A stretch of DNA of 64,000 nucleotides from an archaeon. GTDB lineage: Archaea; Iainarchaeota; Iainarchaeia; Iainarchaeales; 1-14-0-10-31-34. Position 1 is the first letter of the stretch. Each line of letters opens with the position of its first letter. The stretch covers positions 780-64,779 of the forward strand of contig JBDRFE010000060.1 of assembly GCA_043819075.1 (NCBI GenBank), written 5' to 3'. Shown in pieces: positions 3,861-64,000 of the stretch. Under the pieces are notes generated by a model. The model was given only the letters and a program-made list of their open reading frames with translations, was not told the origin of the DNA and made no database searches. Position numbers and translations under genes: made by a program.

Positions 3861-3915
3861 AATATAAGCTTTTTATCGCAAATTATTTATAAAGAATCCT
3901 AAGTTAATTGATATC

Positions 3916-26736: not shown

Positions 26737-26741
26737 TTCAT

Positions 26742-31082: not shown

Positions 31083-31090
31083 TTTTTCAC

Positions 31091-31762: not shown

Positions 31763-31799
31763 TTAAACCACATCTGATTATTTTGTGTGTGCAAAGATT

Positions 31800-32711
31800 T
31801 TAATTTGGTTCCAGTGCAAGCAATCCTGCTCCAATCATGCCTGCTTTTTCCCTGAATCTTGCTTTAAGCACTTTAGTGTTTTTTGCCGGTTTCAGGGCTC
31901 TTTTCTTCATTTCTTTTACTGCTTCATTAAAAATAATTTTTGAGTTGCTTAATCCTCCTCCTAAAATTATTGCATCAGGGTTAAACGAGTTTGCAATGTT
32001 TGCTAAGCCGATTCCTAAAAGCATTCCTGTTTCTTTTAGTACTGAAATAGCAAGCTTGTCTTTTTTTTGTGCGGCTTCATCAATTTTTTTCGGCGTTAAA
32101 GGCCACATTTTTTTCAGGATTGAAGGACATGCCTCCATTTTTCTTTCTGTGAGCCTCATTAAAGCTTTTATTCCGGCGTATTCTTCCAGGCAGCCTGTGT
32201 TGCCGCACTGGCATTTTGGCCCGAAAAAGTTTATTGTAGTGTGGCCTATTTCGGTTAAATTATTTTTTCCTGAAAAAATTTTTTTATTGATTATTATTCC
32301 AGAGCCTATTCCTGTCCCGGCTGTTAAGCCTACTATAACACTGAATTTTTTCCCTGCTCCGATTTTTGCTTCAGCTAAAGCCATTAATTTTGCGTCATTC
32401 TGTAAAACAATTTTTTTCCTGATTTTTTTTTTTAGTGCTTCCACTATTTTTGTGTTATTCATTTTCGGTATGTTCGGGCTTTCAATTATTATGCCTTTTT
32501 TTTCGTCAACGCTTCCTGCAAAGCCTATTCCAATGGATTTGATTTCTTTTGAGTCAAGTTTTGAAATAATTCTTTCAATAGAAGAAATAATGCTGTTTTT
32601 TCCGGAAGAAGGGTTTGTTTCAATGTTTATTTGCTTGAATATTTTTCCTTTGCTGTCAACAATTCCTGCTTTAATTTGTGTTCCGCCGACATCAATGCCT
32701 ATTGCTTTCAT
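31800..32711 (-). CDS. ROK-family sugar kinase (glucokinase-like)
   Basis: IGIDVGGT N-terminus; zinc motif CQCGNTGCLE. Confidence 0.75.
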   Translation of the reverse strand: MKAIGIDVGGTQIKAGIVDSKGKIFKQINIETNPSSGKNSIISSIERIISKLDSKEIKSIGIGFAGSVDEKKGIIIESPNIPKMNNTKIVEALKKKIRKKIVLQNDAKLMALAEAKIGAGKKFSVIVGLTAGTGIGSGIIINKKIFSGKNNLTEIGHTTINFFGPKCQCGNTGCLEEYAGIKALMRLTERKMEACPSILKKMWPLTPKKIDEAAQKKDKLAISVLKETGMLLGIGLANIANSFNPDAIILGGGLSNSKIIFNEAVKEMKKRALKPAKNTKVLKARFREKAGMIGAGLLALEPN

Positions 32712-43962: not shown

Positions 43963-44310
43963 ATGCCACAAAAATTAATGAAAGGAAAAACATTAAGGGT
44001 TACCCTTGATTCAGATGACTTAAAACATTTGGAGTTTGAAAAAAGAGAAGACATTATTAATAAATGGATTAACTGGGAAATAGATGACATTAAACTCAAG
44101 GCAGAAATGAATTCTTACATTGGTTTGTGCCTGTTAAGCGTTTTAGGCGGCTTTTTTGTTTTTAACTGGTTTTTTTTGTTCTTGATTTTCTTTTTTCCTA
44201 AAGTGCTGAATATGCAGTTTGTTTACGGCGACTCAAGCTCTGACAAAAAAAGATGGAAGAAAAAAGTTGTCACAAGAATTGACGGCTTTGACATTGCAAA
44301 GGGCGGTTGA
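43963..44310 (+). CDS. small membrane protein, paralog 1
   Basis: Start abuts the preceding stop; one or two TM segments; KKVVTRIDGFDIAKG tail. Confidence 0.4.
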   Translation: MPQKLMKGKTLRVTLDSDDLKHLEFEKREDIINKWINWEIDDIKLKAEMNSYIGLCLLSVLGGFFVFNWFFLFLIFFFPKVLNMQFVYGDSSSDKKRWKKKVVTRIDGFDIAKGG

Positions 44311-44697
44311 ATGTTTAAACTAGTTAAAGGAAAACAGATTTTGTTTGATGTTGAAACAGACAAGTCTGACATAAAATTCAGGGAAGAAATCGGAAGAACT
44401 TACTTAAACATGAAAATAGATGAAGGAAAAACACTTGGAATCTTTTACTTTAATTTTGTTCTTTTGTTGCTGAACATGGTTTTTGCAGTTTTTGTATCAA
44501 ATATTTTTGTTATTGGAATACTTCTTTCCCTTTACTCCAGTTACCAGTCACACGAAAACTATTTAAGTGCATGGTCTAAAAGAAACAAGTTTGGAAGAAA
44601 AAAAGTAATAAGGATTGACATAGAAAAAAGGCCTGCAATAATTGACAAAGGGCCTCAGGTGCCATGGATTAAAGCAGACAAGACAGTAAAATTTTAA
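44311..44697 (+). CDS. small membrane protein, paralog 2
   Basis: Start abuts the preceding stop; same architecture (KKVIRIDIEKRPAIIDKG). Confidence 0.4.
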   Translation: MFKLVKGKQILFDVETDKSDIKFREEIGRTYLNMKIDEGKTLGIFYFNFVLLLLNMVFAVFVSNIFVIGILLSLYSSYQSHENYLSAWSKRNKFGRKKVIRIDIEKRPAIIDKGPQVPWIKADKTVKF

Positions 44698-46924: not shown

Positions 46925-47070
46925 CAGCTCGACTGAACGAAGTGAATAACCGCTTCCGTGCGGTTGTGACGGCGCACGGCGTGAAGCCGTGCTAGCGCAA
47001 CTTTATGTTGTGCACCGTTGCTCACGGACGGAACCGTGACGTGGCAGCCGAGCGAAATCGGCTAACTGCA
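46925..47070 (+). ncRNA. GC-rich twin-hairpin structured element, copy C (stand-alone, oligo-T at 47081-47093)
   Basis: TTCAG-CTCGA-CTGAA; GCACGGC-GTGAA-GCCGTGC TA GCGCAAC-TTTAT-GTTGTGC; CACGG-ACGGAA-CCGTG; GCCGA-GCGAAA-TCGGC. Confidence 0.5.
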
Positions 47071-48044
47071 GTTTGTTCCTCTGCTTTTTTCTGTTGTGAA
47101 ATCTTTTGTCCCTAACTCAAAATTTTTTTGCTGAAAAACTTTTTTCCAAGCCTGCTTGCATTCAAATGCATATAAGCAATCAGAACAATAATGCCTTATA
47201 GTGCATTCAGTTATTGTTGTAGGAGAAACTGTTGTGTCATCAATAATTATTTCTTTTTTTGTGCTGTCAATCCTGCAGTCGTAAGCAGGCGTGCCTAAAA
47301 CATTTACTGTGAATTCCTGTTCAATGAAACCAAAATCCAGTCCAGTAATTTTTGCTTTAACAAAGTATTCTCCGGGAGAATCAAATTCAATTTCTGTTTC
47401 AAGTGTTTTTGTTTCTTTTGGTTCAATTCTTGTCCTTGTGCTAACAGCTTTTTTTATTTGCTCTTGTTTTATTGTTCCGTTGTCGTTGAATGCAATTGCT
47501 GCAACAGCTTCAATTACTGCAAAGCTTTCAGTTGTATTCCCTTTGTTGGTTACTTCAGCTGAAATTCTTAGTTTATCTGAATCAAAATAAAAGTTGTTGT
47601 TGTAGTTTAACCCATCTGATTGCACTTGCGCCGGAACACCTCCAACGTAAATGTCGCAGAAATAGGTTCCTTTCACGTTCTCGCATCTGGTGCTTGTTAT
47701 TGGATTAATTGTTTTGTTGAATTTAATGAAATCTTTTGTCCATTCACTTCTTGAATCGCATTTCTCGTTTTCTGCACAGCAAAATTCATATGAATTGCAT
47801 TCAAATTCTATTACAGTATTATTTGATTCAAAATCCTGTTTTGACAGTGAAATTCCTTTTTCAAGCTTTAAATCGTATTCAGAGTTATAAATTCCTAAAT
47901 TTTTTTTTTTGAGAGCTCTATTTGCCCGTTTAATTTTTCTACAATGCCTTGTTTGGGGAATGCAGCGGGAAAAAAAATGTTTGAAATAAAAAAAAACAAA
48001 TACAATAGTACAATAAAGCTTACAACTATTTTGAATGGATTCAT
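47062..48044 (-). pseudogene. secreted Cys-rich protein gene split by an A11 tract (signal-peptide ORF 47900-48044 plus body 47062-47900)
   Basis: ATG at 48044 encodes a hydrophobic signal peptide and stops just after T11 (plus 47900-47910); the body frame runs from the tract with no ATG; A12 would fuse them. Confidence 0.45.
47900..47910. repeat. T11/A11 homopolymer at frameshift site
   Basis: Counted directly. Confidence 0.8.
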
Positions 48045-50258: not shown

Positions 50259-50459
50259 GGGACCGTGGTGTAGCCTGGTCTAGCATTGCGGCTTTGGGCC
50301 ACAACTGTTTCGTCAGTTGAGTGCGATGCACGACTTTCGCGGTTTAGCCCGCGAGAGACTATGCACTACTTTCAGTAGAGCTAGCTTGCTTCGCTTTATT
50401 CTGATAAAATAATTGATGCAAATAAGCCGTTGACCCCGGTTCAAATCCGGGCGGTCTCA
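50259..50459 (+). tRNA. tRNA-Pro (anticodon TGG) with 126-nt intron after position 37 (50299..50424)
   Basis: Exon 1 GGGACCG..GCGGC-TTTGGG; exon 2 A-GCCGT-TGAC-CCCGG-TTCAAAT-CCGGG-CGGTCTC-A; acceptor and anticodon stems pair across the intron. Confidence 0.7.
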
Positions 50460-50668
50460 TAACATTTTTCTTAAATTAATCTCGCATTTGCTTTCTTCTT
50501 CTCTGCCTTCTTTCGTCACTTGTTTTTGTATTCTGTTTTTCTTGTTTCAAGAACTTTTTTTGTTTTAATGCTTTGTTTGCAGTCCTTTCCTTTGATTCTT
50601 TTGAACGCGAAAACATTCCTGAATTCATGTTATACTATTGTTTTATGATATTAATTAGCTTTTGTTTT

Positions 50669-51274
50669 TCACTGTACTTCAACTGATTCTATGAGCCAGT
50701 CGTCTCCGTCCTTGTTTTCAAAGACAACCGGATAAGCTTTTGATTCAAGGCCTGTTACTTCAACTGTTCCCTTGTAATTGCACATGCATGCAAACCTTTC
50801 TTCCGGCGGAGCTGTTGTGGGGCCGAAATCAAATTTTGTGTCATCAACTGCTTCTCCTTCGGCTACAATAACAAACCCGTCCAAGTCAATGTATGTTTCA
50901 AATGAAAGCGTTGATGCCTCGCAGAACATTAAGCCATAATATTCTATTTTAAGAGAGTTTTTGCCTGGCACAACATTAATGGATTTCATTTGCTCTTCTG
51001 TCGGGTTTCTTTCATCCGGAATGAATTCATTGTTTTTTATTTCACCTAAACAGCCTGTTGACTTAAAAGAATAATTTAATTCAGTGATTGTTTCTGATGG
51101 CTGGCCGACATACCATGCAGGATCTGGCTCGAATTCGTTTACATCATTAAAAAGTGTTTCCTCATAGTCTGCAGGAAGCTCTGGCTTTTCTAAAGGAAAC
51201 TGTGAAATCAGTACAACCCCGATAAAAATAATCGCAAAAGCAATCGCAGCGTAATGTTTTTTGTTTAACTGCAT
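50669..51274 (-). CDS. secreted hypothetical protein
   Basis: Signal peptide; no family assigned. Confidence 0.35.
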   Translation of the reverse strand: MQLNKKHYAAIAFAIIFIGVVLISQFPLEKPELPADYEETLFNDVNEFEPDPAWYVGQPSETITELNYSFKSTGCLGEIKNNEFIPDERNPTEEQMKSINVVPGKNSLKIEYYGLMFCEASTLSFETYIDLDGFVIVAEGEAVDDTKFDFGPTTAPPEERFACMCNYKGTVEVTGLESKAYPVVFENKDGDDWLIESVEVQ

Positions 51275-51370
51275 AATACAATAACGCTTAACCTTTATTT
51301 AAAACTTTATTTTTTCATTTAAATCAGGATTCCTGCAGTAAAGTATAAAAATTCTGGTTCCCTTGTTTTA

Positions 51371-51931
51371 TTGCATATGATAAGCAATTTAATCCAGTCA
51401 ACTGAAAAAATCAGGTCTGCGTTTGAAAGAAATGATTTGGTTAAGTTAAGGCAGTTAAGCAACAGCTTAATAGAGGAAGCTGCCCTGAAATCAGATAAAG
51501 TTCTGGCACAGCTTTCGCTGATTTCTTATTCACTGCAGAAAATCCTGTCAAAACCGCATATAATTGAGGCAGGGAAATGGGGGAAAATAAAATCAACAAT
51601 CATTTTTTCCCTGAATAAGGCTTCCCTTTATTTAAAGAAAAAAAATTTTGATGAATTCAGGAAAGAACTGGATAATCTTTCTGCAAAAGTTTTTGAAGTT
51701 GATTCCTCTATGGGGAATTATATTGCAAACGTTTATGAGAAAGCAAGAGTAAAACAGGCTTCAAGGGCTTATGCTTTGGGGTTAAGCTTGAGGCAGGCAG
51801 TAAGCCTGACTGATGCAAACGAAAAAGACCTTTTAAGTTATATTGGCGGGACAAAAATCCATGACAGGGAAAAAAACATTAAAAGCCTGAAAGAAAGAAA
51901 AAAATTATTGGACGGGATTTTCTTTGAATGA
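51371..51931 (+). CDS. hypothetical protein
   Basis: ORF; 8-nt overlap with the next gene. Confidence 0.3.
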   Translation: MHMISNLIQSTEKIRSAFERNDLVKLRQLSNSLIEEAALKSDKVLAQLSLISYSLQKILSKPHIIEAGKWGKIKSTIIFSLNKASLYLKKKNFDEFRKELDNLSAKVFEVDSSMGNYIANVYEKARVKQASRAYALGLSLRQAVSLTDANEKDLLSYIGGTKIHDREKNIKSLKERKKLLDGIFFE

Positions 51932-52619
51932 ACTTGTTTTTGATTCAAGTTCAATTATTTCGATTTCACAGAACTGTTTAATGAATGTTTTGGAAAACCT
52001 TTCAAAAAAAACAAAAAGCAGATTTTTGATTCCAAAAAGCGTTGAATTTGAGTCAGTTACAAAGCCTTTGTCAATTAACAGGTTTGAATTAAATGCTTTG
52101 AGAATAAAAAAAGCAGTTGATTCAGGCTGGCTTGGCCTTGAAGAAGAAATTGATTCAACGCAGATACTTGAATTGTCTAACAACATTTTTTTTGCAGAAA
52201 ACCACCCGATTAAAATAATCCATCAGGGTGAAGCAGAAACAATTGCATTATACAAAAAAACAAATGCTTTTGCAATGGTAATTGATGAAAGGACTACTAG
52301 AATGCTTTTAGAGGAGCCTGAAAACCTTGCAAAAAAGCTGAGATTTAATTACAGGAAAAAAATTAAAGTGAACAAAAAAAATTTAAGGGATTTTTTTTCT
52401 GTTGCAGGAAAAATAAAGATTGTGAGGTCAGCAGAGTTAATTGCAAAAGCTTTTGAGTTAGGGTGTTTTGAAGGGGAACTTGAGTCATCTTTGAAGGCGC
52501 TTGAAGCAGCATTATATGCATTAAAGTTTAATGGTTGTGCGATTTCACTGGACGAAATAAGGGATTATGTTGGTGTGGTGAATGAAAATAATTCAGGCAG
52601 AAAAAAAGCATTTCAGTGA
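51924..52619 (+). CDS. PIN-like domain protein
   Basis: Acidic triad candidates in PIN-like spacing (FDSSSII; GEAETIAL; VIDERT). Confidence 0.35.
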   Translation: MNELVFDSSSIISISQNCLMNVLENLSKKTKSRFLIPKSVEFESVTKPLSINRFELNALRIKKAVDSGWLGLEEEIDSTQILELSNNIFFAENHPIKIIHQGEAETIALYKKTNAFAMVIDERTTRMLLEEPENLAKKLRFNYRKKIKVNKKNLRDFFSVAGKIKIVRSAELIAKAFELGCFEGELESSLKALEAALYALKFNGCAISLDEIRDYVGVVNENNSGRKKAFQ

Positions 52620-53034
52620 AATAAATTCTTTAATTGAAGATGAATTCCCTTACACAAAGAAAACGATTCCTGAAATAAGCCTGAGGGAAAGGCAGGGAAG
52701 CAGTATTTTTGTTGCAGAAGAAAAAAAAGTTTTTATGGGTTTTATTGAATTCAAGTTAAAAGGCTTTGAGGCAAGCCTTTTGGGTATTGCGGTAAAAAAA
52801 GAGTTCAGGAAAAAAAGCATTGGAAAAAAATTATTTGATTTTTTTATTGAATACTGCAAAAAAAACAGTGTGAAAAAAATTTCCCTGCTTGTAAAAAAAG
52901 AAAACCTTCATGCAAAAACCATTTATAAGTCAAGAGGCTTTGCTGAAGCAGGAGAACTTGAAAAAAAAATAGATGGTTTTGTTATTAACAGAATGCAGTT
53001 AACCTTGGATGAAGGCTCTGCCGGAGTAAATTAA
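52582..53034 (+). CDS. GNAT family N-acetyltransferase
   Basis: Acetyl-CoA-binding motif region (LGIAVKKEFRKKSIGKKL). Confidence 0.7.
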   Translation: MKIIQAEKKHFSEINSLIEDEFPYTKKTIPEISLRERQGSSIFVAEEKKVFMGFIEFKLKGFEASLLGIAVKKEFRKKSIGKKLFDFFIEYCKKNSVKKISLLVKKENLHAKTIYKSRGFAEAGELEKKIDGFVINRMQLTLDEGSAGVN

Positions 53035-54126
53035 CTGTAAATAATTTCAATTACCGGCTCAATTATTTTTTTCGGGTGGCCTTCAAGCTCTAATGCTTCA
53101 ATTATTTCTTCTTTAGTGTATTTTTTCACTGCAACATCCAGTGACGAAACAAGCTTTTTCACTTTGTTTTTTTCTTCTTTTGTCAGGCCGTTAAAAACGC
53201 TTTCATCAACTTGTTTTGCCCCCATTTTTTTTGCTAGGCCTTTGGTGAAAAAACCCGTAATGTTTTTCAGCTGTCCTGCCACGCTCTGGTTTTCTTCTAC
53301 GCTTTTCTCTTTTTGCGGCATTGCTTTAATGTTAACAGGAATTATTTTTTCCAGTTCTTTCATTCTTTCTTCCGGTGCCAGATAAATTTTTTGTTCCGGG
53401 GTTTCTGTTTCAAATGATTCTATTACCTGGAACATGGATTTTTTTTCTTTGGGTTTTTCGCTTTCAGTTGCCTTTGTTTTTTCTTTCAGAGGTTTTTCCA
53501 GGACAAACTCTTTCAGCATTTCGCTTTCAATGTCTTTTTTTTTTTTCAGGCAGCGGAGTTTTTATTATTTTTTCAGCTGACTTTTTTTCAAGGATTATTT
53601 TTTCTGAAACCCCTTTTTCAAAAAGTTTTTTTTCAGGAGCACTGATTTCATTTATTTTTTTGTAGCCTGAAGCATGTTCTTTTAATTCTTCCAGAATCTG
53701 TTTTTTTTGTTCTGTTTCTTTTTCTTCATGGTGCAGGGGCTTTTCCTCTAATTTAATGTTCAGTGAACTGATTTTGTTTTCTTTTTTTTGTTGTTCTGTT
53801 TTGTGCCAGTGCCCTTCCCTGAAAGGAATCTTTTTGTCTTCGATTAGTTCAGGCTGTATTTCTTTTTTTTCCTCTTTTTTATTCCATAAATGCTCTGATT
53901 CTTTTTCTTTTATTATTAAGCCGTCAATGTCTTCTTTTTCAAGGTCTTTTCCTTTTATACTGGAGACTTCTTCCCTGAGCTTGTTCATTAAAATTTTTTG
54001 TTTATTGTTTTTTTCTTCTTTCACAACAGGTTTTTTCTGCTGCTTTATTTTTTCTGCTTCTTCTTTTCTTTCTTTTAAGTCTTTTTTTGATTTGACTAAA
54101 GCATTTATTTCTTCTATTGACGGCAT
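53031..54126 (-). pseudogene. Lys/Glu-rich low-complexity protein gene split by an A12 tract (ORFs 53527..54126 and 53031..53519)
   Basis: The upstream ORF ends PEKKKRH* across T12 (plus 53535-53546); A11 would read through into MLKEFVLEK... Confidence 0.35.
53535..53546. repeat. T12/A12 homopolymer at frameshift site
   Basis: Counted directly. Confidence 0.8.
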
Positions 54127-54173
54127 TCAATCACACTAATAATAAATACTGCCATATATAAAAGTTTGTCAGT

Positions 54174-55637
54174 TTAATACGATTTTGCGATATAAACGAT
54201 TTTTTCTGCTTTTTTTCCGCAGGCAATGCAGTTTCCTTTTGGATTTTCTTTTTCTCCAAGCCTTGTCCCTCTAATGCTTGCATTCAATTCTTTTTCAATT
54301 TTTTCTGCGCAAGAATAGCCTTCCATTGACACTGAACAGAACCCTGTTTTGATTATTTTGCCTTTCTCTAATTCTTTTTTTGCTTTTTCAATTGAGTCAG
54401 CTGAAACAATTGCTTCACTGAACTCTTTTTCAGCTTTTAACTGAAGTTCTTTCAGCTGTTTTTCGCCTTCTTTTAAAATCAAAGAGCTTATTCTTGCAAG
54501 GTTTTCTTTTGTTTTTTTTCCTGAATGCCTTGCAAAAACTGTTGCTTTTTTTTCAGTTAACTCTTTTTCCCCTAATTCAATGCGGAATGGAACTCCTTTC
54601 ATTTCCCAGAAATAAAATTTTTCTCCGATTGTTTTGTCAGTTAAATCAGCTTCAGCCCTTAATTTTTTTTCAGTTAATTCTTTTCTTATTTTTTCTGTTT
54701 CTTTTAATATTTTTTCCTTGTTTTTGTCGTTATAAATCGGCACAATCACTGCTTGCAACGGTGCCGCAGTGAATGGAAGCACTAATCCTTTGTTGTCGCC
54801 GTGAACTGAAATCATTGCGGCAAAAATCCTGCTTACTGCCGGGCCATAGCATGTTGTCCAGCAGTAATTTTCTTTTCCTTTTTCGTCAGTGAATTTTACA
54901 TTAAATGCTTTTGTAAAATTTTGCGATATAACATGAGTTGAAGGCAGCTGCAGTATTTTTCCGTCTGGCATTAAAGTGTCTGCTGCAAAAGTTGATTCTG
55001 CTCCCGGAAACTTGTCCCATTGCGGTCTCTCAAAAAAAATAAACGGAATCCCTAATTTTTCCAGCAGCACTTCTTTTGTTGTCTGCATGTCTTCTTCTGC
55101 CTGCAAAAAAGCGTTTTCTCTTGAATCAAATGCATTATGTGTTTCAATCCAGTAAAATTCCCTGCTTCTGATGAAAGGCTTTGTTGCTTTTGTTTCATGC
55201 CTGAAAACCTGTGCTCTTTGATATGTTTTGAATGGAAGGTCTTTGTATGACCTAATCCATAAAGAAAACATCTGGTAGAAAGCTGTTTCTGATGTCGGCC
55301 TTAAAGCAAGTTTTTCCTCTAATTTTTCTCCTGCACCAGTTTCTGTTACCCAAAACACTTCTGGTGCAAAGCCTTTTACATGCTCTTTTTCCATTAAAAA
55401 ATTTTTTTCCGGGATTACAACAGGATACCAGTATGGTTTGTGGCCTTTTAATTGAAGTGTTTCTTCAAAAAAGTCATACATTTTTTCCATTGCAATAACA
55501 GACCATGGCTGGAAAATCAGAAAGCCTTTTACATTATATCTTAAGTCCCCTAATTCAGCTTTTTTTACTATTTCAGAGTACCATTCAGAGAAATTGTTTT
55601 TTTTGTCAAAGTCAAATGTGACTTTTTCTTTTGCCAT
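54174..55637 (-). CDS. proS: prolyl-tRNA synthetase (archaeal/eukaryal type)
   Basis: Class II ProRS core with C-terminal zinc-binding extension; about 487 aa. Confidence 0.85.
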   Translation of the reverse strand: MAKEKVTFDFDKKNNFSEWYSEIVKKAELGDLRYNVKGFLIFQPWSVIAMEKMYDFFEETLQLKGHKPYWYPVVIPEKNFLMEKEHVKGFAPEVFWVTETGAGEKLEEKLALRPTSETAFYQMFSLWIRSYKDLPFKTYQRAQVFRHETKATKPFIRSREFYWIETHNAFDSRENAFLQAEEDMQTTKEVLLEKLGIPFIFFERPQWDKFPGAESTFAADTLMPDGKILQLPSTHVISQNFTKAFNVKFTDEKGKENYCWTTCYGPAVSRIFAAMISVHGDNKGLVLPFTAAPLQAVIVPIYNDKNKEKILKETEKIRKELTEKKLRAEADLTDKTIGEKFYFWEMKGVPFRIELGEKELTEKKATVFARHSGKKTKENLARISSLILKEGEKQLKELQLKAEKEFSEAIVSADSIEKAKKELEKGKIIKTGFCSVSMEGYSCAEKIEKELNASIRGTRLGEKENPKGNCIACGKKAEKIVYIAKSY

Positions 55638-55673
55638 AGGAAAAAACTTCTTTCAATCTCTTTAAAACCTTTT

Positions 55674-56045
55674 TTACAGCCTTCTCAGTCTTCTGAAAAA
55701 CTTTCTTATCTCATGTTTTCTTATTACAGGCTTGACTGGTTTTCCGCCTATTGTTCCTGTTTTGGTTGTCTTGTCAATTTTTCCGCCGACATAAGTTTCC
55801 TGTATTTCCATTATTCTTGGCTTGCCTTCCATTGAACTGTCCTGTGCATTTATTGTTCTGCTGACAGGGTTTCCTTTTGAATCCCATTCAGTGACTTCAT
55901 GGCGTGTTCCGATATAATTTCCTGTTTTTTTTGTTTTTCTCCTGAACTTATCCTGTTCAGGGCTTTTTCCTACAATATGGTTTGTTTGTCCAAGCGACTG
56001 TTTTGCTTTCTTCATTTCTTCTGGCGTTAATTTTCTTACAGGCAT
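55674..56045 (-). CDS. hypothetical basic protein
   Basis: Start at ATG 56045; the longer track ORF extends into the GC-rich element and is unlikely. Confidence 0.3.
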   Translation of the reverse strand: MPVRKLTPEEMKKAKQSLGQTNHIVGKSPEQDKFRRKTKKTGNYIGTRHEVTEWDSKGNPVSRTINAQDSSMEGKPRIMEIQETYVGGKIDKTTKTGTIGGKPVKPVIRKHEIRKFFRRLRRL

Positions 56046-56140
56046 TTTAATCAATAAAAATACTGAACCAGAATTAATAAGGCTTTCTTTAAACTGCCGT
56101 TCGCCGATTCTGCTCGGTGGCAATGAGGTACAACACAAGG

Positions 56141-56283
56141 TCTTGTTAGCACGGTTTTATGCCGCAACCGTCACGCTCGGTTGGTGTGCGCGCACGGGAT
56201 AAACCCGTGCTAGCGCAACTTTATGTTGCGCACCGTTACACTCGCACGGAAGCGAGTCGGTGCTCGCGGGCGAAACCGCGAAA
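56141..56283. ncRNA. GC-rich twin-hairpin structured element, copy D (abuts the tRNA-Pro(GGG) 3' end)
   Basis: ACGGTT-TTATGCCGC-AACCGT; GCACGGG-ATAAA-CCCGTGC TA GCGCAAC-TTTAT-GTTGCGC; CTCGC-ACGGAA-GCGAG; CGCGG-GCGAAA-CCGCG. Confidence 0.5.
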
Positions 56284-56357
56284 TGGGACCGCCGAGATTT
56301 GAACTCGAGTTACAAGCTCCCCGAGCTTGAGTGATAACCAGACTACACTACGGCCCC
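56284..56357 (-). tRNA. tRNA-Pro (anticodon GGG)
   Basis: Acceptor GGGGCCG/CGGTCCC (one G.U), anticodon stem CAAGC/GCTTG, loop TCGGGGA, T-arm TCGAG-TTCAAAT-CTCGG. Confidence 0.75.
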
Positions 56358-56363
56358 TTAATC

Positions 56364-57479
56364 TTAAATTAATTTAAAGTAGAATTCCTCTAATTTTAAT
56401 GCCCGTTTTTCCCTTGAATTCTCTTCAGCTTTTTTAACTGCATTAACTGAAAGCCTGTTATACAATGTTTTGTCTGAAAAAAGTTTTTTTATTTTTTCTG
56501 CTGCTTCTCTGGCATTAAACGGTTCAAACAAGAAACCATTAACCTCCTCTTTTATTGTTTCTGGTATAGCCATTTTGTTTGCTCCAATGCAGGGCATTCC
56601 TGTCGCCATTGCCTCTGCAATTGTCAATCCTTGTGTTTCCATTGTTGCTGCAGTTATAAAAACATTTGATTCAGCGACTTTTTCAGCTAATTCTTTTCCT
56701 TTTAATGCTCCTGTAAAAAAAACCCTTTTTTCAAGGTTTTTTTCTTTTGCTTTTTCCTTTAATTTTTCTAATGCAGGGCCTGAGCCGATTATTGAAAGCA
56801 AAGCAGTTTCTTCAAGCAGTTCCAGTGTGTCAATCAGCACTTCAATGTTTTTTTCAAATGAAATTCTTCCGAAGTAAACCAGTTTTTTTTGTTTTAAGTC
56901 TTTATTGCATTTCACTGAATTAAATAATTTAAAGTTTATTCCGTTTGGCAAAACTTTCACGTTTTTTATTCCGTTTTCTTCTAATTCTTTTTTTATTTTT
57001 TCTGTTGGCGTGGTAGTTAAATCACATTTGTTGTAAAACAGTTTTGAATAAAACCAGACTCCTTTTTTTGCTATCTGTGATTCTTTTAGGAAGGGAATTG
57101 GCAGGTACATCATGAAGTCAGGCAGGTAAGTGTGGTATGTCCCGATTTTTTTTTTCTTTAATTTTTTTGCTAAATTTAATCCAATCCAGCCCACTGAAAA
57201 AGGCGTGTGGCAGTGAATTATATCTGGATTGAATTCTTTTAGTTTTTTTTCTGCTTCAAGTGAAATAATTGAACTAATCCTGTATTCTTTGTATGTTGGC
57301 AGTGAAATGCTTGGAATCCAGAAAACATCAAATTTTGTTTTTACTTCTTCCCTTGTTTTTGGCGCAAAAACCATTATTTTGTGGCCTTTTTTTTCTAATT
57401 CTTCTGCAAAATTGTCTATGGAAATGACTACTCCGTTTATCTGCGGCCAGTAACTGTCAGAAAAAAAAGCTATTCTCAT
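56364..57479 (-). CDS. GT4-family glycosyltransferase
   Basis: GT-B fold with RIAFFSDSYWPQINGV N-terminus. Confidence 0.75.
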   Translation of the reverse strand: MRIAFFSDSYWPQINGVVISIDNFAEELEKKGHKIMVFAPKTREEVKTKFDVFWIPSISLPTYKEYRISSIISLEAEKKLKEFNPDIIHCHTPFSVGWIGLNLAKKLKKKKIGTYHTYLPDFMMYLPIPFLKESQIAKKGVWFYSKLFYNKCDLTTTPTEKIKKELEENGIKNVKVLPNGINFKLFNSVKCNKDLKQKKLVYFGRISFEKNIEVLIDTLELLEETALLSIIGSGPALEKLKEKAKEKNLEKRVFFTGALKGKELAEKVAESNVFITAATMETQGLTIAEAMATGMPCIGANKMAIPETIKEEVNGFLFEPFNAREAAEKIKKLFSDKTLYNRLSVNAVKKAEENSREKRALKLEEFYFKLI

Positions 57480-57522
57480 GTTATCAGATAAATTGTTCTT
57501 GGTTTAAGTTCTTTAATTCTTT

Positions 57523-58227
57523 CTATCGAATGTTTTCGTATTTTCTGCTTGCCTTGTTGAAGAAATAAAAGTTTACTGCGTTCTTTAAGTGAAAGAAAAT
57601 AAAATAAAAGTAGCCCCATGCCTTTACTCTTCTTGCTGAAACCTCTACAATGCTTTTTTTGTTGTATTTTATTTTGCCAATTTTTTTAAGGTGCCTGAAT
57701 AAATCCAGGTCTTCGCAGGTTACATAGCTTGAATCAAAGCCGTTTATTTTCCTGAAGGATTCTTTTCTTACTGCAATGTTTGAGCCAATCGGGTTATGCA
57801 TTCCGATTGCGGCCATTAAACTCATGAACAACGGCATTACTGTGCTGCTAATTTTTTTCTCTGATGAGCTTACATCAGAAAAAAACACGCTTCCGTACTG
57901 GCCTATTACTTCTGGGTTTTTTTCAAAAAAATTAACGTTTTCCTGCACCCAGTTTTCTGCTACAATTGCATCAGCGTCTGTGAATAAAAAGTATTTTCCT
58001 TCAGCAATTTTTGCTCCTGCGTTTCTTTCAGCTGCAATTCTTCTTATTTTTTCTTTTATTGTTTTTGCTCCAAGGCTTTTTGCTATTTCAACTGTTTTGT
58101 CTTCACTGTTTCCGTCTGCTACAATTACTTCAAAGCTTCCTGAAAACTTTTGTTTTTGGATTGATTTAACGCAGTCGCCAATCCTTTTCTCTTCGTTTAA
58201 AGTGCAGACGATTACTGAGATATCCAT
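57523..58227 (-). CDS. GT2-family glycosyltransferase (dolichyl-phosphate glycosyltransferase-like)
   Basis: ISVIVCTLNEE...DADAIV motifs. Confidence 0.75.
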   Translation of the reverse strand: MDISVIVCTLNEEKRIGDCVKSIQKQKFSGSFEVIVADGNSEDKTVEIAKSLGAKTIKEKIRRIAAERNAGAKIAEGKYFLFTDADAIVAENWVQENVNFFEKNPEVIGQYGSVFFSDVSSSEKKISSTVMPLFMSLMAAIGMHNPIGSNIAVRKESFRKINGFDSSYVTCEDLDLFRHLKKIGKIKYNKKSIVEVSARRVKAWGYFYFIFFHLKNAVNFYFFNKASRKYENIR

Positions 58228-58334
58228 GAATAACCGATAAAAGAAAGCTTTTGAAAAATAAAAGGTTTTTGGAGGGAATACAGTTTCTGGCGGTTAAACC
58301 AACAAATTTTAATTAGTTTAACATAATTTATTAT

Positions 58335-58826
58335 TTGATGAATAAAGAGCAGTTTGTCGAAGGAAAGCTTGAAGGATGTGAAAAAGAATTTTGTTCACAA
58401 TCCTGTTGTGATGACGATAAAGTTGAAGAATGGACAAACGAGTATTTTGCTTTTCATGAAAGAATGAAAGAGCATTTGCTTTCTGCTGGAATTAAAATTC
58501 ATTTTGCCGGAGACAGAGTAAGATTCACTAATTGTTCTGATGGCAGGGAATGCAAGTTTTTAAAGTATTCTTTAAACAAAGATATTGATCCAAGGCCAAT
58601 TGACTGCAAAATATTTCCTTTTACAGTTGACTGGGAATCAATTGATTTTAATAAAAAAATAGCAAAACTGGATTATTGGGACAAAAGCTGCCCTTTAGTG
58701 AAAAGCAACAACATTCCAAAAGAGTTCCTGAAAGAAGTTGAAGGCATAATAAAAAGAGATTTTGCAGTTCTGTTTTATGGGGCAAGATTTGAAGTTAAGT
58801 TTCCTGCAGACTTAAACAAAAAATAA
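58335..58826 (+). CDS. Cys-rich hypothetical protein
   Basis: C-x4-C-x3-CC plus further Cys residues. Confidence 0.3.
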   Translation: MMNKEQFVEGKLEGCEKEFCSQSCCDDDKVEEWTNEYFAFHERMKEHLLSAGIKIHFAGDRVRFTNCSDGRECKFLKYSLNKDIDPRPIDCKIFPFTVDWESIDFNKKIAKLDYWDKSCPLVKSNNIPKEFLKEVEGIIKRDFAVLFYGARFEVKFPADLNKK

Positions 58827-58840
58827 AAGAAATAAAACTT

Positions 58841-58962
58841 TTTCAGCTCGGCTGAGCAGAGCGAATGCCAAACCAGTTTCGGCTGGTTGCAGCGACGCAC
58901 AGCTTTTAGCTGTGCTAGCACGACCTTGTGTCGTGCGTTTGATACAACTTTGGAAAGTTGTT
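58841..58962. ncRNA. GC-rich twin-hairpin structured element, copy E (abuts the tRNA-Trp 3' end; hairpin order swapped)
   Basis: TCAGC-TCG-GCTGA; CCAG-TTTCGG-CTGG; GCACAGC-TTTTA-GCTGTGC TA GCACGAC-CTTGT-GTCGTGC; CAACTTT-GGA-AAGTTG. Confidence 0.45.
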
Positions 58963-59090
58963 TGGGGACACTGGGAGTCGAACCCAGATTTCATGGTTGC
59001 TGCCTTTTTTAGAAAATTTTGTTTTTGATAAAACTTTTTTCTAAAAAGTTTTGTCTGGAGCCAAGCGGGATGCCATTACCCCATGTCCCC
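58963..59090 (-). tRNA. tRNA-Trp (anticodon CCA) with ~55-nt AT-rich intron in the anticodon loop
   Basis: Exon 1 GGGGACA..CTTGG-CTCCAG; exon 2 A-CCATG-AAAT-CTGGG-TTCGACT-CCCAG-TGTCCCC-A; one U.U mismatch in the anticodon stem. Confidence 0.6.
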
Positions 59091-59190
59091 TGTGGATAAG
59101 ATTTTAATGGCGAGATGTTTTTATTTATTGTGGAGCAATGCAAAAGATTATATTTGATGTTATTCTATTTATTTAGTTAAAGGGATTTAA

Positions 59191-60465
59191 ATGAAGAAGT
59201 TTTTGGCTTTATTGTTTTTGGTGTTTTTGGTTAGTTCAGTGAATGCTTTGTCTTCTGCTGAAGTAACAAATTTTTTTAAATCTGAATCGCATTACCTTGA
59301 ATCAAACCAGTCTTTTAGTGAAACCCCTTATTTCATTAAATCTGATGCCAAAAATTACTGGGTTGTTGTCTTGATTTCTGACAGGACGCCAACCGGTTTT
59401 ATTGCGGTTTTTTCTGATGAAAAAAAGGTTGTTGATTCTGCTGCAGTTAACAGAAAGCTGTTCAGGACAGCTTATGTTCTTTTTTCGGTTAATTCTTATA
59501 AGACAAGCTCTAACTGGATTTTTTCTAATTCAAATAAAGGCAAATTTAATACTCTGTCAAAAATTATTTCATCTGATGTGCCGTTTAAATTGAATTCAAT
59601 CAAGCAGGGTTCAACTGATTCTTTTGTCAGAAACAAAGTTGATTTAATGAATTCAATGCTTGAGTTAATGTCTGTTAAATCAAATGAAGTGGAGCAGGCT
59701 TTTGATGAAGCAATTTCTTTGGAGTTATCTTTTACTACCAGCCCTGATGCTTCTGATACTGATAAATTAAAGCAGAAATACGAGGAAGTTTTTTCTTTGC
59801 TGCAGGAATTCCAGGACCTGAAACTGGATTATTCTTTGAATGCAATTGAATTAAAGAAACTGATTTCTGATTCAAATGCCAGTACTTCAGAAAAACAGCA
59901 GTTTTTGGCTCTTGCAACCGAACCCCAGCAGCTGGCTTCAATTGACTCTATTTTTTCTTTGTCTGATGATGCTTCACAGAGAATTGAAGAAGTTTATTCT
60001 TCTGTTAATTCTTATGTAAGTTTTTGGGTTGATGATGTTTCTTTGATGGCTGAAAGGAATTCAGCTTTCAATGAAATTTATTCAGAGGACAAGGATTTTT
60101 ATTCAAAGACAAAAAACAATTTTTATGCCCTGAATGAAGCGTATTCTTTTATTGTGAAAGAAGAAAATGACCCTTATTGGAAAGAACAGTCAAGGCTTTC
60201 TTCGCTGAAAAAAAATTTTTCTGAGGCAACAAAAGCTTTTGAACAAAAAAATTATTCCAGAAGCATTTCTTTTTCAGTTAAAGCAAAAAGCGATGCAATT
60301 GCAGTTATTTTTGCAGGCTTCAGTGAGCAGTCAACTTTTTTTGTTGATCCTGGGACAATAATCATTGCCTTGGCTGTATTGCTTGTTTTGCTTATTTTGT
60401 TCAATAACAGGAAAAAGTTTTTCAAGCCCAAAGCGGAAACTGAAATAACTGAATTCAAGTTTTAG
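59191..60465 (+). CDS. secreted protein with C-terminal TM anchor
   Basis: Signal peptide and C-terminal hydrophobic segment followed by a basic tail. Confidence 0.4.
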   Translation: MKKFLALLFLVFLVSSVNALSSAEVTNFFKSESHYLESNQSFSETPYFIKSDAKNYWVVVLISDRTPTGFIAVFSDEKKVVDSAAVNRKLFRTAYVLFSVNSYKTSSNWIFSNSNKGKFNTLSKIISSDVPFKLNSIKQGSTDSFVRNKVDLMNSMLELMSVKSNEVEQAFDEAISLELSFTTSPDASDTDKLKQKYEEVFSLLQEFQDLKLDYSLNAIELKKLISDSNASTSEKQQFLALATEPQQLASIDSIFSLSDDASQRIEEVYSSVNSYVSFWVDDVSLMAERNSAFNEIYSEDKDFYSKTKNNFYALNEAYSFIVKEENDPYWKEQSRLSSLKKNFSEATKAFEQKNYSRSISFSVKAKSDAIAVIFAGFSEQSTFFVDPGTIIIALAVLLVLLILFNNRKKFFKPKAETEITEFKF

Positions 60466-61600
60466 GAATAAACTTCCATTAAGTCCCCGTCTTTTAGCTT
60501 AAAGTCTAATGAAACTTTTTGCCCGGGAAAAGAGCCTGAACCCCATACTTTAACATATTTTAAGCTCTGGGCAAAATCCTTGTGCACTATTCCTGCAACT
60601 TCTTTTACTGTTATTCCTTTTGGCAGCACTAACGGCTCGTTAAGGTTTTCTTTTTGCCCTGGCTTTCTTGTATAAACAAGTATTTTGTCTAACAGCAAGA
60701 AAATCTGTTTTTTTATTTCTTCAGTGTTTTTTTCATTGAATGCAATTGAATTGACTTTTTTTCCGTTCAAGTCTTTGAGTTCAATTTCTTTTCCTGTTCC
60801 CTTGGTTGTTACTGCAAAAACTTTTTTGTACACTATTCTGTTGTCAAGTACTTCGGATATTTTTTTTAAGTCAGCTTTTTCGTTTATTATTACATTGCAG
60901 TTCTGTAATGCCATGCTTTTAAGGAAAGAAATTAATGTTTCTTCTTCAACATCCAAAAACTTTTTTCCTGCAATATTTATTCCAGGAAACTTTGAGGGAA
61001 AAATTTCAATTAACGGCTTTTTCTGGTTTAATTTGATGTTCACTTCATTTGTTTCTTTTAAGAGAATGTTCAGTTGTTCTTGTGCTTTTTCTTCTTCTAA
61101 TATAATGGCCACTGCGTCTGCATTCCTTATCACTGAAAGAATTTGCACTCCGTTTGCTTTTCCTTTTGATGACCCTTCAATTAATGCTGGAACTTCAACT
61201 AACTGCACCATTGCCCCTTTATAGTTCATTGTGGCTATTTCAGGTTTTGTTGTGGTGAATTCATAGTTTCCTACTGCAAGCAATGCATTTGTTATTGTGT
61301 TAATTAAAGTGCTTTTCCCTGAGTTTGGAAGCCCGATTACTGCTATCTGGCCGACTCCTTCTTTTTTTACGTTGATTGAGTACCCTGAACCGCTTTTTGC
61401 CTGTGTTTTTTGTTTTTCCATTTTTTTTTTTTGAGCAAGGCAATTTTTTTTGTTATTTCTGCCCTGAGTTTTTCTGCTCCCTTGTGTTTTGGCGCAGCAG
61501 ACTTCATTTCCTGTAATGCGGCTAATTTTTCTAACTCTGTTTTTGCTTCATGGAATTTTTTTTCTGCTATAGCATAATTGTAGTCGGCATTTGAAGGCAT
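60462..61600 (-). CDS. DRG-family GTPase with TGS domain, interrupted by a frameshift at an A12 tract (ORFs 61367..61600 and 60462..61421)
   Basis: N-terminal ORF resembles the DRG basic N-terminus; downstream ORF has GLPNSGKSTLIN P-loop and a TGS domain; A13 would restore one frame (...LLKKKKMEKQKTQAKSGSGYS...). Confidence 0.65.
61421..61432. repeat. T12/A12 homopolymer at frameshift site
   Basis: Counted directly. Confidence 0.8.
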
Positions 61601-61651
61601 TATAATCCAGAATAAAATTTGATTGAAAATATTTAAAATAACAACAAAGGG

Positions 61652-62275
61652 TTATTTCCATGCCTTAAAGACTATTAGTTCCTCAAAAAAAATCTTTTTC
61701 CTTTTTTCCACAGCATATTTTAATGCGTTTTCTTCCAGTTTTTTTTCTGTTTTTTTTATTTTGTTCAAGTCTGACTGCAAAAAAAAGCATTTTCCGTTTT
61801 CAGTTAAATGATTTTTTATTTCAGGAATAAATTTGTCAATTATTTCTCTTCCTTTTTTTCCGCCGTCAACTGCCTTGTCAATCCAGCCGCTTTCACTGGC
61901 TTTTCCTTCAACGTAAGGCGGGTTAAAGTAAATAAAATCAAACTTTTCTTTTATGTTTGAAAACAAATTGCTTTCAATGACTGTAATTTCCAGTTTGTTT
62001 TCTATTGCGTTTTTTTCTGTTAAACTTAATGCCACAGGATTAATGTCAGCGCAGTACACTATTGCTTTTTGTTTTGCCGCAATTAATCCAAGAAATCCTG
62101 TTCCGCAGCCTAAGTCAAGCGCTTTTGCTTTAGGAAAAACTTTAATGCATTCAGCTAACAGTTCAGAGTCTTCTCTTGGAAAATAAACTTTTTTATCTGA
62201 GAAAAGCTTTATCCCGTGCAATTCAATTGCTTTTGTTTCATTCATAAAAAAAATTAGTTTGCTGTGTCCTTGCAC
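61652..62275 (-). CDS. HemK/Mtq2-like N5-glutamine (release factor) methyltransferase
   Basis: DLGCGTG SAM motif and NPPY motif. Confidence 0.7.
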   Translation of the reverse strand: MQGHSKLIFFMNETKAIELHGIKLFSDKKVYFPREDSELLAECIKVFPKAKALDLGCGTGFLGLIAAKQKAIVYCADINPVALSLTEKNAIENKLEITVIESNLFSNIKEKFDFIYFNPPYVEGKASESGWIDKAVDGGKKGREIIDKFIPEIKNHLTENGKCFFLQSDLNKIKKTEKKLEENALKYAVEKRKKIFFEELIVFKAWK

Positions 62276-63471
62276 GAATTAAGTTCTGGATGCAGTTCGC
62301 ATATTAAGTCATTTATTTTTTGTATTTGTTCGTTTCCCTGGATAATGTATTTGCAGTCAACTACTAATGAGGGTGCAAAATTTACCCCTAAATCTTTTGC
62401 CTGCTGTGTTTCTTGGTTGATTTTTTCAAGGGGCTCTTGTGTGTTCACGCATTCACTGAAAGCTTTTGTATCAGGAATCTGTGTTACAAGGGCTCCTGCA
62501 TTAATTACTTCTGGCAGGGAGTTGTCTATTGCATTGCTTTCAAGCCCGAAAACATCCGGAAAGCTTTTTTCAAACAAGTATTTATTGAATTCAAAGAATC
62601 TTCCTTGTTTTGCCGCGCATTCAGCTGCAATTGCTGCGTTCAAAGAGTTTTTGTGGACAATATAATTTTTGTACCTGAAAATCATTTCTCCTGCAAACTT
62701 TTCTCTTGCTTTTTTTGTTGCATCAAAAACTATTGCACATCCAAGGCACTGGTAGTCAGAGAATTCTTCGACAAAAACTTTTCCTTGTTCTGCATTACAG
62801 CTTTCAGGTTTTTCCAAAAACATTATGTTGTGTGGCAGTGAATCAAGATATGATTCAGGCACAATAAAATAACCTTTTTTTTGAGTGAAAGCTTTTTTGA
62901 TTAAGTTTTCCTGTAAAGGGTATTTTTCGAGGCTTGCTGCATTCACTAAAGCGCTTGGAATTACTGTTAAGCCAAATTCATCAATATAATGCTTGTTTTC
63001 TTCTTTTGACAAGTCAATTGATTCAACTGAAAAATTAATGTCTTTTGCCTTAAAGTTTGCAATAATAGAGTTTTCTTTTGAGCAAAAACTGCATTCACTT
63101 GAATAAAAGTTTTTTATTTCAACTAAAGCCGGTTCTTCAAAGCTTCCTTGTTTTGGTGTGTTTTCAAAAAAAACTTTGTTTAATGCAAGCCCTGCAAAAA
63201 TGATGAAGATTACTGCAAGCACTGCAATAATCCAGGGAAAAGATTTCTTTTCTTTTGCTTTTATTTCTTCTTTTTCAGGTTCTTCGAGATGCAGTTTATC
63301 CCAGTTTTCTTCTTCTGTGCTTGAATCAATTTTTTCTTGGATTTCTTCTCTGGTTTCAAATTCTTTTAAATCTCCAATGCTTTCTTCCTGTTCTTTTTTT
63401 ATTTCAGGTTTTTCTATTGTTTTTTTTCCTTTATCTGAAGGTTTTTTTTCTTTCATGTTTTCCCTTAACAA
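62254..63471 (-). CDS. membrane-anchored protein with two DsbA/thioredoxin-like domains
   Basis: Acidic N-terminus, one TM helix, CSFC and CLGC CxxC motifs in thioredoxin-like contexts. Confidence 0.55.
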   Translation of the reverse strand: MLRENMKEKKPSDKGKKTIEKPEIKKEQEESIGDLKEFETREEIQEKIDSSTEEENWDKLHLEEPEKEEIKAKEKKSFPWIIAVLAVIFIIFAGLALNKVFFENTPKQGSFEEPALVEIKNFYSSECSFCSKENSIIANFKAKDINFSVESIDLSKEENKHYIDEFGLTVIPSALVNAASLEKYPLQENLIKKAFTQKKGYFIVPESYLDSLPHNIMFLEKPESCNAEQGKVFVEEFSDYQCLGCAIVFDATKKAREKFAGEMIFRYKNYIVHKNSLNAAIAAECAAKQGRFFEFNKYLFEKSFPDVFGLESNAIDNSLPEVINAGALVTQIPDTKAFSECVNTQEPLEKINQETQQAKDLGVNFAPSLVVDCKYIIQGNEQIQKINDLICELHPELNSCKDTAN

Positions 63472-63521
63472 ACTTCTCTTGGTTTGTTTTTTAAATTTAA
63501 CGAGTTTGTTAGTTTATCTGC

Positions 63522-64000
63522 ATGTTTGTTGATGTTCACTGCCATCTGGAAATGTTCAGGGATTTAAGGAAAATTGTTTCTGAAAGCGTTTCACAGGGAA
63601 CAAAAACAATTGTTTCTGCTTCTGTTGACATGAATTCAATGAAATCAAACCTTAAAATTTCAGGAAAGTTTTCTGAAGTTGAATGCTGTTTGGGTGTTCA
63701 TCCGGTTAACCTGCTTTCAATGAAAGAAAAAGAATTAAGTGAATCAATTTCTTTCCTGAAAAAAAACATTTCTTCCTGTAAAGCTGTTGGTGAAATAGGA
63801 GTAGATTTCAAGTACGCTGATTCAGCTGAAAAAAAAGAAAAGCAGTTCAAGGTTTACAGGGAACAGCTTTTAATCGCGGAAGAAAATTCCATGCCTGTTG
63901 TAGTTCATTCCCGTTTTGCTGAAAAAAAGTCCCTTGAAATTCTTTCAGATTTTAACGGAAAAGTTTTATTGCACTGGTTTGACGGAAGCACTGAATCTTT
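63522..64000 (+). CDS. TatD-family metal-dependent hydrolase (3' end outside window)
   Basis: MFVDVHCHL N-terminus, VGEIGVDF, VVVHSR motifs; open to window end. Confidence 0.7.
   Translation, partial: MFVDVHCHLEMFRDLRKIVSESVSQGTKTIVSASVDMNSMKSNLKISGKFSEVECCLGVHPVNLLSMKEKELSESISFLKKNISSCKAVGEIGVDFKYADSAEKKEKQFKVYREQLLIAEENSMPVVVHSRFAEKKSLEILSDFNGKVLLHWFDGSTES

Follow-up and report, generated by a model that had tools for sequence, protein, structure and literature searches.

A GTPase gene split at a run of 12 A's

Close to the end of the window (the whole 64,000-nt stretch of the archaeal contig JBDRFE010000060.1 analyzed here), two overlapping open reading frames read like the two parts of one gene, and the locus raises the question of whether this gene is broken in the organism, only in its assembly, or as part of a recoding signal. 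The first-pass annotation had placed the N-terminus of a DRG GTPase and its P-loop/TGS body in different frames at a run of 12 A's. The upstream ORF (61367..61600, minus strand; 77 aa; hypothetical protein ABH986_05745 at NCBI) starts with MPSNADYNY, and its residues 1-60, which are basic and helical, end in AEKLRAEITKKIALLKKKK and correspond to the DRG N-terminus. Beyond them the ORF has a tail of 17 out-of-frame residues, WKNKKHRQKAVQGTQST, and closes with TAA at 61367-61369. The downstream ORF (60462..61421, minus strand; 319 aa; "GTPase" MFH1664271.1 at NCBI) contains the P-loop GLPNSGKS, the G domain, an insertion, and the TGS domain.

The two frames meet in the A run at 61421..61432 on the minus (sense) strand, which is T12 on the plus strand. 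The junction reads ATT GCC TTG CTC AAA AAA AAA AAA TGG AAA AAC, with exactly 12 A's, so that the run encodes four Lys (AAA) when read in the upstream frame, and its final base is the A of the start ATG of the 319-aa ORF. The coordinates, the frames, and the start codon embedded in the poly-A are therefore as first described. Adding one A (A13) restores the frame and gives a 379-aa ORF, and removing two (A10) gives 378 aa. The earlier proposal that A13 yields a continuous product of about 378 aa was right about continuity, but the length is 379; the 378-aa in-frame allele, seen in a 99.8%-identical strain, is A10.

The joined 379-aa product was compared with proteins of known identity by phmmer, and the matches span about 355 residues. 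It aligned with yeast Rbg2 (7nrc_So) over residues 23-378 (E=1e-39) and with yeast Rbg1 (4a9a_A) over residues 16-377 (E=4e-34), in both cases with no gap at the junction, and also with 7rr5_R. Pfam detected MMR_HSR1 at residues 85-198 (1e-19) and TGS at residues 309-377 (4e-12), while MMR_HSR1_Xtn at residues 207-304 scored 29.7 bits, under the Pfam cut-off of 35.2. The gene is thus laid out as an N-terminal helical region, a G domain with an S5D2L-type insertion, and a C-terminal TGS domain. Together with an intact orthologue in a sibling genome (P0001, below), these data confirmed that the two ORFs are one DRG/Rbg-like gene (60462..61600, minus strand) with a single homopolymer frameshift, in agreement with the gene identity first assigned.

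The protein shares with Rbg1/Rbg2 and human DRG1/2 its full-length collinearity, the order of domains, and conserved G1 and G2 motifs: G1 (GLPNSGKS) fits the P-loop pattern GxxxxGK[ST], and G2 (YEFTT) contains FTT, both matching the motifs of Rbg1/2. It differs at G3 and G4. The DxxG motif of G3 is not present, EVPA standing where Rbg1/2 have DLPG, and E-x-P-A occupied this position in all 15 DPANN homologues inspected. The NKxD motif of G4 is likewise not present, as TKGT aligns to NKID of Rbg1/2, and no NKxD was found in the 15 DPANN homologues. Because these two motifs are non-canonical, we refer to the protein as DRG-like rather than as a canonical DRG. It belongs to a divergent DRG-like GTPase subgroup.

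The DRG-like gene in related genomes

The protein search returned P0001, a 378-aa protein that is 99% identical at full coverage and comes from another NCBI MAG, and P0002, which is the deposited 319-aa ORF of the window itself. P0001 is encoded on contig JBDRTA010000007.1 of GCA_043824355.1 (the sibling) and in the Logan assembly of SRR26275509. The sibling has A10 at the DRG site and reads ...LLKKKMEKQK... there, in two assemblies of one run (L001, L002). Five Iainarchaeota/DPANN MAGs with 76-78% protein identity were read at the DNA level; they carry interrupted Lys-rich codons at the site (AAAAAAGAAA, AAAAACCAAAA, AAAAATAAAA, and similar), and their genes are intact. Two further homologues with 79-80% identity (P0003, P0004), checked at the protein level, are also intact.

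P0002 was the only fragment-length entry among the 120 DRG homologues listed, and none of the relatives among them had a gene split at that position. An additional homologue search with the N-terminal 129 aa of the DRG-like protein scored 45 candidates; P0001 was absent from its results, and L012 was found. Given the interrupted codons and unbroken genes of the relatives at 76-78% identity and the in-frame sibling, the long A run is specific to the species and the frameshift to the assembly of the window. The exact DNA pattern across the run (flanks and A8 with a gap of 0-8 nt) had no match in the genome or metagenome contig collections. Exact-product look-ups of window ORFs (319, 449, and 233 aa, the ligase allele, and the 49-aa frameshift product) found none on record, and thus neither a second assembly of the strain nor one sharing its frameshift came to light.

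Related Iainarchaeota MAGs keep the gene at 76-80% identity, and it is retained over a wider range of DPANN. The first-pass annotation had argued from a universally conserved gene; the argument is weaker than stated, since the protein of this DPANN clade is without canonical G3 and G4 motifs.

Two further genes broken at long A runs

The window was aligned with the sibling contig. Positions 50461-64000 were 99.80% identical, with 24 substitutions and two indel events, and both indels lie at the only two 12-mers of the window: the DRG site (A12 versus A10) and a second site at 53535 (A12 versus A11). Over 40.5-64 kb (23.5 kb), frame-breaking differences occurred only at three A runs. The remaining indels in this region are two in-frame events (3 nt and 6 nt), both within one divergent patch.

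The second out-of-frame run (A12 in the sense direction, 53535..53546, minus strand; A11 in the sibling) splits a Lys/Glu-rich hypothetical gene (53031..54126, minus strand) into ORFs of 199 aa (53527-54126) and 162 aa (53031-53519). In the sibling this is a single 364-aa protein, and the run length is the only nucleotide difference between the two copies; the intact form is also present in the Logan assembly of SRR26275509 (L014). The third out-of-frame run, found through gaps in coding density, is A11 in the sense direction (47900..47910, minus strand), where both the sibling and an independent sample (ENA ERZ928008 / ERR2191545; L010) have A9. It splits a gene at 47062..48044 (minus strand) into a 49-aa ORF (47895-48044) and an open frame that extends to 47062 and is startless until a GTG at 47676. 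The N-terminus of the product is hydrophobic and signal-peptide-like, and the sibling encodes the product whole, with 326 aa (L013).

Other long runs served as controls. An in-frame A11 run (32423..32433, minus strand) in a ROK-family kinase gene (31800-32711) lies in protein sequence that does not differ between the window, the sibling, and a Logan contig, and an in-frame A10 run (57146..57155, minus strand) in a glycosyltransferase gene is as long in the sibling as in the window. Apart from the three breaking runs, eight of 9-10 nt (one A10 and seven A9) had the length seen in the sibling; with the A11 run in the kinase gene, which was judged by protein, this makes nine runs of 9-11 nt that match relatives. 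No homopolymer indels were found at runs of 10 nt or shorter over the 23.5 kb compared with the sibling, and a general excess of indels was thus not seen. Three of the four window runs of at least 11 A's break genes, each of which is intact in relatives, and the sibling is in frame at four of four checked runs of its own of at least 10. The break had first been presented as an event in a single gene, which no longer fits these data: within 64 kb, three otherwise intact genes lose their frame at poly(A) tracts of 10 or longer. Possible read-through of in-frame stops at 26742 and at 43960-44313 was also considered and rejected, as separate genes meet there at TGAATG, a stop/start junction of the ordinary kind.

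Apart from the runs, the DRG-like gene differs from the sibling by 12 substitutions, the gene at 53031..54126 by none, and that at 47062..48044 by two. Eight of the ten changed codons in the DRG-like gene are synonymous, and we take it to be a normal gene under purifying selection. No further frameshifts or stops were found in the three broken genes. With no other lesions and few, mostly synonymous substitutions, an old pseudogene is excluded, and the frameshifts are recent. The initial judgment that the DRG-like gene was unlikely to be a true pseudogene is consistent with these results, the frameshift being its sole lesion.

Three aspects of this set speak against real alleles. All three out-of-frame runs are in one assembly, an asymmetry expected of a sample-specific technical problem. 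For a free population, three gene-breaking alleles at once are many, with one of them in a widely conserved gene. A second slippage step is needed at two of the sites, where the difference is +2.

Run-length statistics and search for recoding signals

A/T runs were counted in the window and in dinucleotide-preserving shuffles. For 11-mers, 6 were observed versus 28.9 +/- 8.6 in the shuffles, and for A/T runs of at least 10, 6 were observed versus about 31 expected, a strong depletion. Runs of 7-8 nt were enriched 1.45-1.65-fold and 9-mers were at 0.74-fold, so that a cliff lies between 9 and 10. Such a cliff in run lengths is attributed to selection against slippage-prone lengths (Baranov et al., PMC1088944). 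Long runs are thus avoided, not exploited, in this genome, and in this depletion it differs from the endosymbiont precedent, although a parallel with the long A-runs of AT-rich reduced genomes was first drawn. A long A run is by itself not improbable, but its position exactly at the junction of a collinear conserved gene exceeds chance.

The A12 run at the DRG junction is a slippery sequence located exactly where the frame changes, and a -1 shift or +1 A restores the frame. Downstream RNA structure, evaluated in the 91 nt after each run, was no better than in shuffles (z = -0.17, +0.79, -0.29). The corrections required also differ: the DRG and 47900 sites need +1/-2 nt (equal to a -1 ribosomal shift), while the 53535 site needs -1/+2 nt. 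The out-of-frame state of the DRG-like gene is not conserved among orthologues (A10 in the sibling; five relatives intact). Out-of-frame runs retained across strains, as in endosymbionts, were found at none of the three sites, where relatives are in frame.

Origin of the assemblies

Dopson et al. 2024 (PMC11484514) describe the sibling MAG as MEGAHIT-group-3.44, from deep groundwater of the Äspö HRL. The pipeline of that study used Illumina NovaSeq sequencing, MEGAHIT v1.1 (k 21-141), and MetaBAT2 binning (PMC11484514). The 95%-ANI cluster of the sibling holds one other genome, MEGAHIT-group-1.353 (JBDRFE000000000; 1.24 Mb; GC 34.61%; Iainarchaeales family 1-14-0-10-31-34) (PMC11484514). The window has a GC content of 34.5% and NCBI locus tags with the prefix ABH986_, which belong to the same accession series, and its source is presumably MEGAHIT-group-1.353, which would make it part of an Illumina/MEGAHIT MAG. 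In the metatranscriptome table of the same study, the species score is 0 (PMC11484514).

Dopson et al. also include one R9.4.1/Flye assembly (PMC11484514). An unpolished nanopore origin of this kind was ruled out for the window, as short-homopolymer indels are absent and the species cluster consists of MEGAHIT bins only. The presumed Illumina/MEGAHIT provenance argues against a simple miscall: a de Bruijn path needs reads in which A12 is present with both flanks. Since the assembly calls runs of 9-11 correctly, it is hard to see how a true A9 or A10 could have been miscalled by +2.

Origin of the out-of-frame runs

We lean slightly, at a probability of about one half, towards the three runs being real, very recent, strain-specific replication-slippage alleles that are not programmed and whose genes have leaky expression. 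The species has gained an uninterrupted run of AAA-Lys codons at the end of the DRG N-terminal helical region, runs of this length are hypermutable by replication slippage, and slippage would have expanded them from A10 to A12 in the DRG-like gene, from A11 to A12 at 53535, and from A9 to A11 at 47900. The alleles would be tolerated for two probable reasons: RNA polymerase slippage together with sliding or -1 slipping of ribosomes on 11-12 A's may give some in-frame product, and in-frame lengths are probably also present in the population. Short-read de Bruijn provenance and the correct calls at other runs suggest that A12 is the true majority DNA allele. Rescue of expression by slippage is presumed by analogy with bacterial and eukaryotic precedents, and we know of no demonstration of RNA polymerase slippage on A runs in archaea. 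Transcriptional slippage on runs of 9 or more A's corrects the frame of 12-50% of the transcripts in endosymbionts (PMC5009743), and ribosomes slide along AAA runs (PMC4363877). For -1 slipping, archaeal fucA1 is a precedent of leaky expression (PMC8211752).

The serious competitor, which we rate at somewhat less than an even chance, is a library or sequencing artefact. The true runs would then be in frame, their lengths altered by PCR or sequencing stutter in a low-biomass groundwater library, and the split ORFs would be artefacts of annotation. Only runs of at least 11 are affected, whose lengths are the least reliable on every platform, and the breaks are limited to a single assembly, the frame being kept in relatives and in independent assemblies; the three genes are otherwise without lesions, and in a genome that selects against long runs, frameshifts should cost fitness. 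However, an assembler with the presumed Illumina/MEGAHIT provenance follows the best-supported k-mer path, and one A11, one A10, and seven A9 runs compare correctly. Stutter favors contraction, yet the runs are longer than those of relatives (+2, +1, +2). Supposing that in-frame runs had each been read one base short, real expansions of +3 would still have to be assumed for two of them. If the A12 run is instead real and unrescued, the DRG-like gene and the other two would be on the way to becoming pseudogenes in a shrinking genome. DPANN genomes are reduced, the protein of this clade is already without canonical G3 and G4 motifs, and yeast Rbg1 and Rbg2 are each individually dispensable. We nevertheless consider such a loss of function improbable, given that the gene is retained at 76-80% identity in Iainarchaeota MAGs and more widely in DPANN, that secondary lesions are absent and substitutions mostly synonymous, and that a 12-A run would be physically expected to yield some in-frame product (PMC4363877, PMC5009743).

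Programmed recoding would make the out-of-frame run a selected signal for slippage or -1 frameshifting, tuning the dosage of the DRG-like protein or giving two products. A12 is an efficient slippery sequence, the correction at the DRG site (+1 nt in mRNA, equal to a -1 ribosomal shift) fits the X_XXY_YYZ geometry as A_AAA_AAA, and fucA1 is an archaeal precedent (PMC8211752). The unconserved frameshift, with A10 in frame in the sibling and intact genes in relatives at 76-80%, makes this very improbable, as do the absence of downstream structure at the three sites, the different corrections that these need, and the genome-wide avoidance of long runs. We give the lowest probability of all to gene fission, in which separate translation would make two subunits of the 77-aa N-terminal piece and the 319-aa body. 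It would account for the ATG with which the downstream frame begins and for the annotation of both ORFs as proteins by NCBI, but in the sibling this ATG encodes a Met inside the protein, other relatives having Ile or Leu there, and what lies upstream of it is the A run itself, without a ribosome-binding motif. The 77-aa ORF, moreover, carries the 17-aa out-of-frame tail, and no relative among the listed homologues is split at the DRG position. The three breaks are therefore ordinary homopolymer length instability, either a real strain variant or a library error, and not a designed recoding signal. The two explanations offered in the first-pass annotation, a homopolymer error and a frameshift buffered by slippage, are both still leading, while conserved or programmed slippage is unsupported because the frameshift is absent from all relatives and the long run itself is absent at 76-80% identity.

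Comparison with known systems

The fucA1 gene of Saccharolobus solfataricus is the only reported archaeal case of cellular -1 programmed ribosomal frameshifting; it is expressed via -1 frameshifting at A-AAA-AAT, and in-frame alleles elsewhere have one A fewer (PMC8211752). Both loci have two annotated ORFs that overlap at an A run (81 and 426 aa in fucA1; 77 and 319 aa here) and a strain-specific frameshift, with full-length alleles of close relatives that differ only in the number of A's and a protein restored by a -1 shift. In contrast, fucA1 has flanking rare codons, a putative stem-loop, and experimental support, whereas the DRG site has no predicted structure and is known from sequence only. 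The window also has two neighboring genes that are broken likewise, with other frame requirements.

In Buchnera and Blochmannia, frameshifts at poly(A) are rescued by transcriptional slippage (Tamas et al. 2008, as summarized in PMC5009743). The likeness lies in a small, AT-rich genome in which several genes, intact in all other respects, lose their frame at sense poly(A) runs of at least 10. The differences are that the state of the window is not common to strains, that long runs are depleted and not accumulated, that the host is an archaeon, and that the window is described by its DNA sequence.

Replicative slippage is the accepted mechanism for hypermutable homopolymeric tracts (PMC2831843; PMC1088944). 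As at phase-variable homopolymer loci, near-identical strains differ here only at the longest runs, which toggle the frame (PMC2831843; PMC1088944). Unlike those loci, which are typically surface or restriction genes, the window includes a housekeeping translation-associated GTPase, and there is no sign of reversible switching. Homopolymer errors of assemblies resemble the present case in that the frameshifts of one assembly coincide with its longest homopolymers, whereas other assemblies have these genes intact; the differences are the presumed short-read de Bruijn provenance, the correct lengths of the other 9-11-mers, and expansions of +1/+2, which are outside the usual error profile. The frameshift is thus a member of the well-known class of homopolymer length variants, and the occurrence of several otherwise intact genes out of frame at long poly(A) is the only feature of the endosymbiont type that it shares.

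Implications

The split of the DRG-like gene is an ordinary kind of event of an already known class, which is neither unique to this gene nor a conserved recoding site; it is notable only if the three out-of-frame alleles prove real and expressed. Public DNA and RNA data exist for the borehole that is the presumed source, so the question is cheaply testable. If the runs are artefacts, MAG annotations split real genes at long homopolymers, and the six "proteins" deposited at NCBI are no more than pieces of three genes.

If the alleles are real, they would show how quickly run lengths change between strains 0.2% apart, and they would be the first indication of a DPANN archaeon that tolerates frameshifts at long A runs. 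This would imply slippage of the polymerase or the ribosome in archaea, where only the -1 case of fucA1 has been reported. It is a tentative and rather doubtful proposal, although not a negligible one, that in this DPANN archaeon three genes or more, the DRG-like translation GTPase among them, truly are out of frame at poly(A), that enough in-frame product arises on 11-12 A's by slippage of the archaeal RNA polymerase and/or ribosome sliding to keep it viable, and that it may thus be an archaeal counterpart of Buchnera and Blochmannia in which run lengths drift in a near-neutral manner.

Genes broken at A runs

Two genes besides the DRG-like GTPase gene (60462-61600, minus strand; A12 run at 61421-61432) are broken at A runs on the sense strand. 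The gene at 53031-54126 is broken at an A12 run (53535-53546) and is intact in the MAG of the near-identical sibling strain (GCA_043824355.1), where it encodes 364 aa; its pieces are separate hypothetical proteins in NCBI (ABH986_05690/05695). The gene at 47062-48044 is broken at an A11 run (47900-47910), with its pieces likewise annotated as hypothetical proteins (ABH986_05635/05645), and intact copies were found both in the sibling MAG (326 aa) and on an independent contig of ERR2191545. Apparent in-frame stops at 43960-44313 and 26741-26744 were rejected as breaks, being TGAATG stop/start junctions between consecutive genes in the same frame; the genes there are ordinary neighbours, encoding a PEP-utilising enzyme and, after it, two small membrane proteins.

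The A/T run-length spectrum of the whole window falls off in a cliff. Enrichment is 1.45-1.65-fold at 7-8 nt, the ratio drops to 0.74-fold for 9-mers, and where about 31 runs of at least 10 nt would be expected there are 6. Each of these six is poly(A) on the sense strand and lies within coding sequence.

Comparison with related strains

Divergence from the sibling, measured over window positions 40471-64000 against its contigs L013 and L001, is mosaic: the value is about 10% at 41-44 kb and 1-3% at 48-50 kb, with 0.1-0.2% over the rest. Half of the substitutions at 50.4-64 kb (12 of 24) fall inside the DRG-like gene, in its first 490 nt, around the A run, and this cluster in the 5' part of the gene looks like a recombination patch. 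Contigs of ERR2191545/ERZ928008 (L009, L015 and L017), which come from a different project, match the window at 99.8-100% identity across short stretches (30927-31849 and 50417-51094), so that, as judged by sequence identity, this strain or one nearly identical to it is present in a second public metagenome.

The DRG orthologue of another MAG (GCA_053535995.1, contig JAIYID010000040.1, 49% GC; positions 3001-4068) contains an in-frame TAG, which replaces a Glu conserved in its relatives immediately before the P-loop (..FNVRK*GSGQVV..); the gene is annotated as two proteins of 80 and 232 aa. Possible readings of this TAG are a nonsense allele, a sequencing error and a recoded stop.

G motifs of the DRG-like protein

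G1 and G2 are retained in the DRG-like protein and in 15 homologues from DPANN archaea. In place of the DxxG of G3, the window protein has EVPA and the homologues have E-x-P-A, and the NKxD of G4 is absent from all of them, the window protein having TKGT; in the joined product the non-canonical motifs lie at about residues 133-140 (G3) and 268-275 (G4). This pattern suggests that nucleotide specificity or hydrolysis is altered in this clade.
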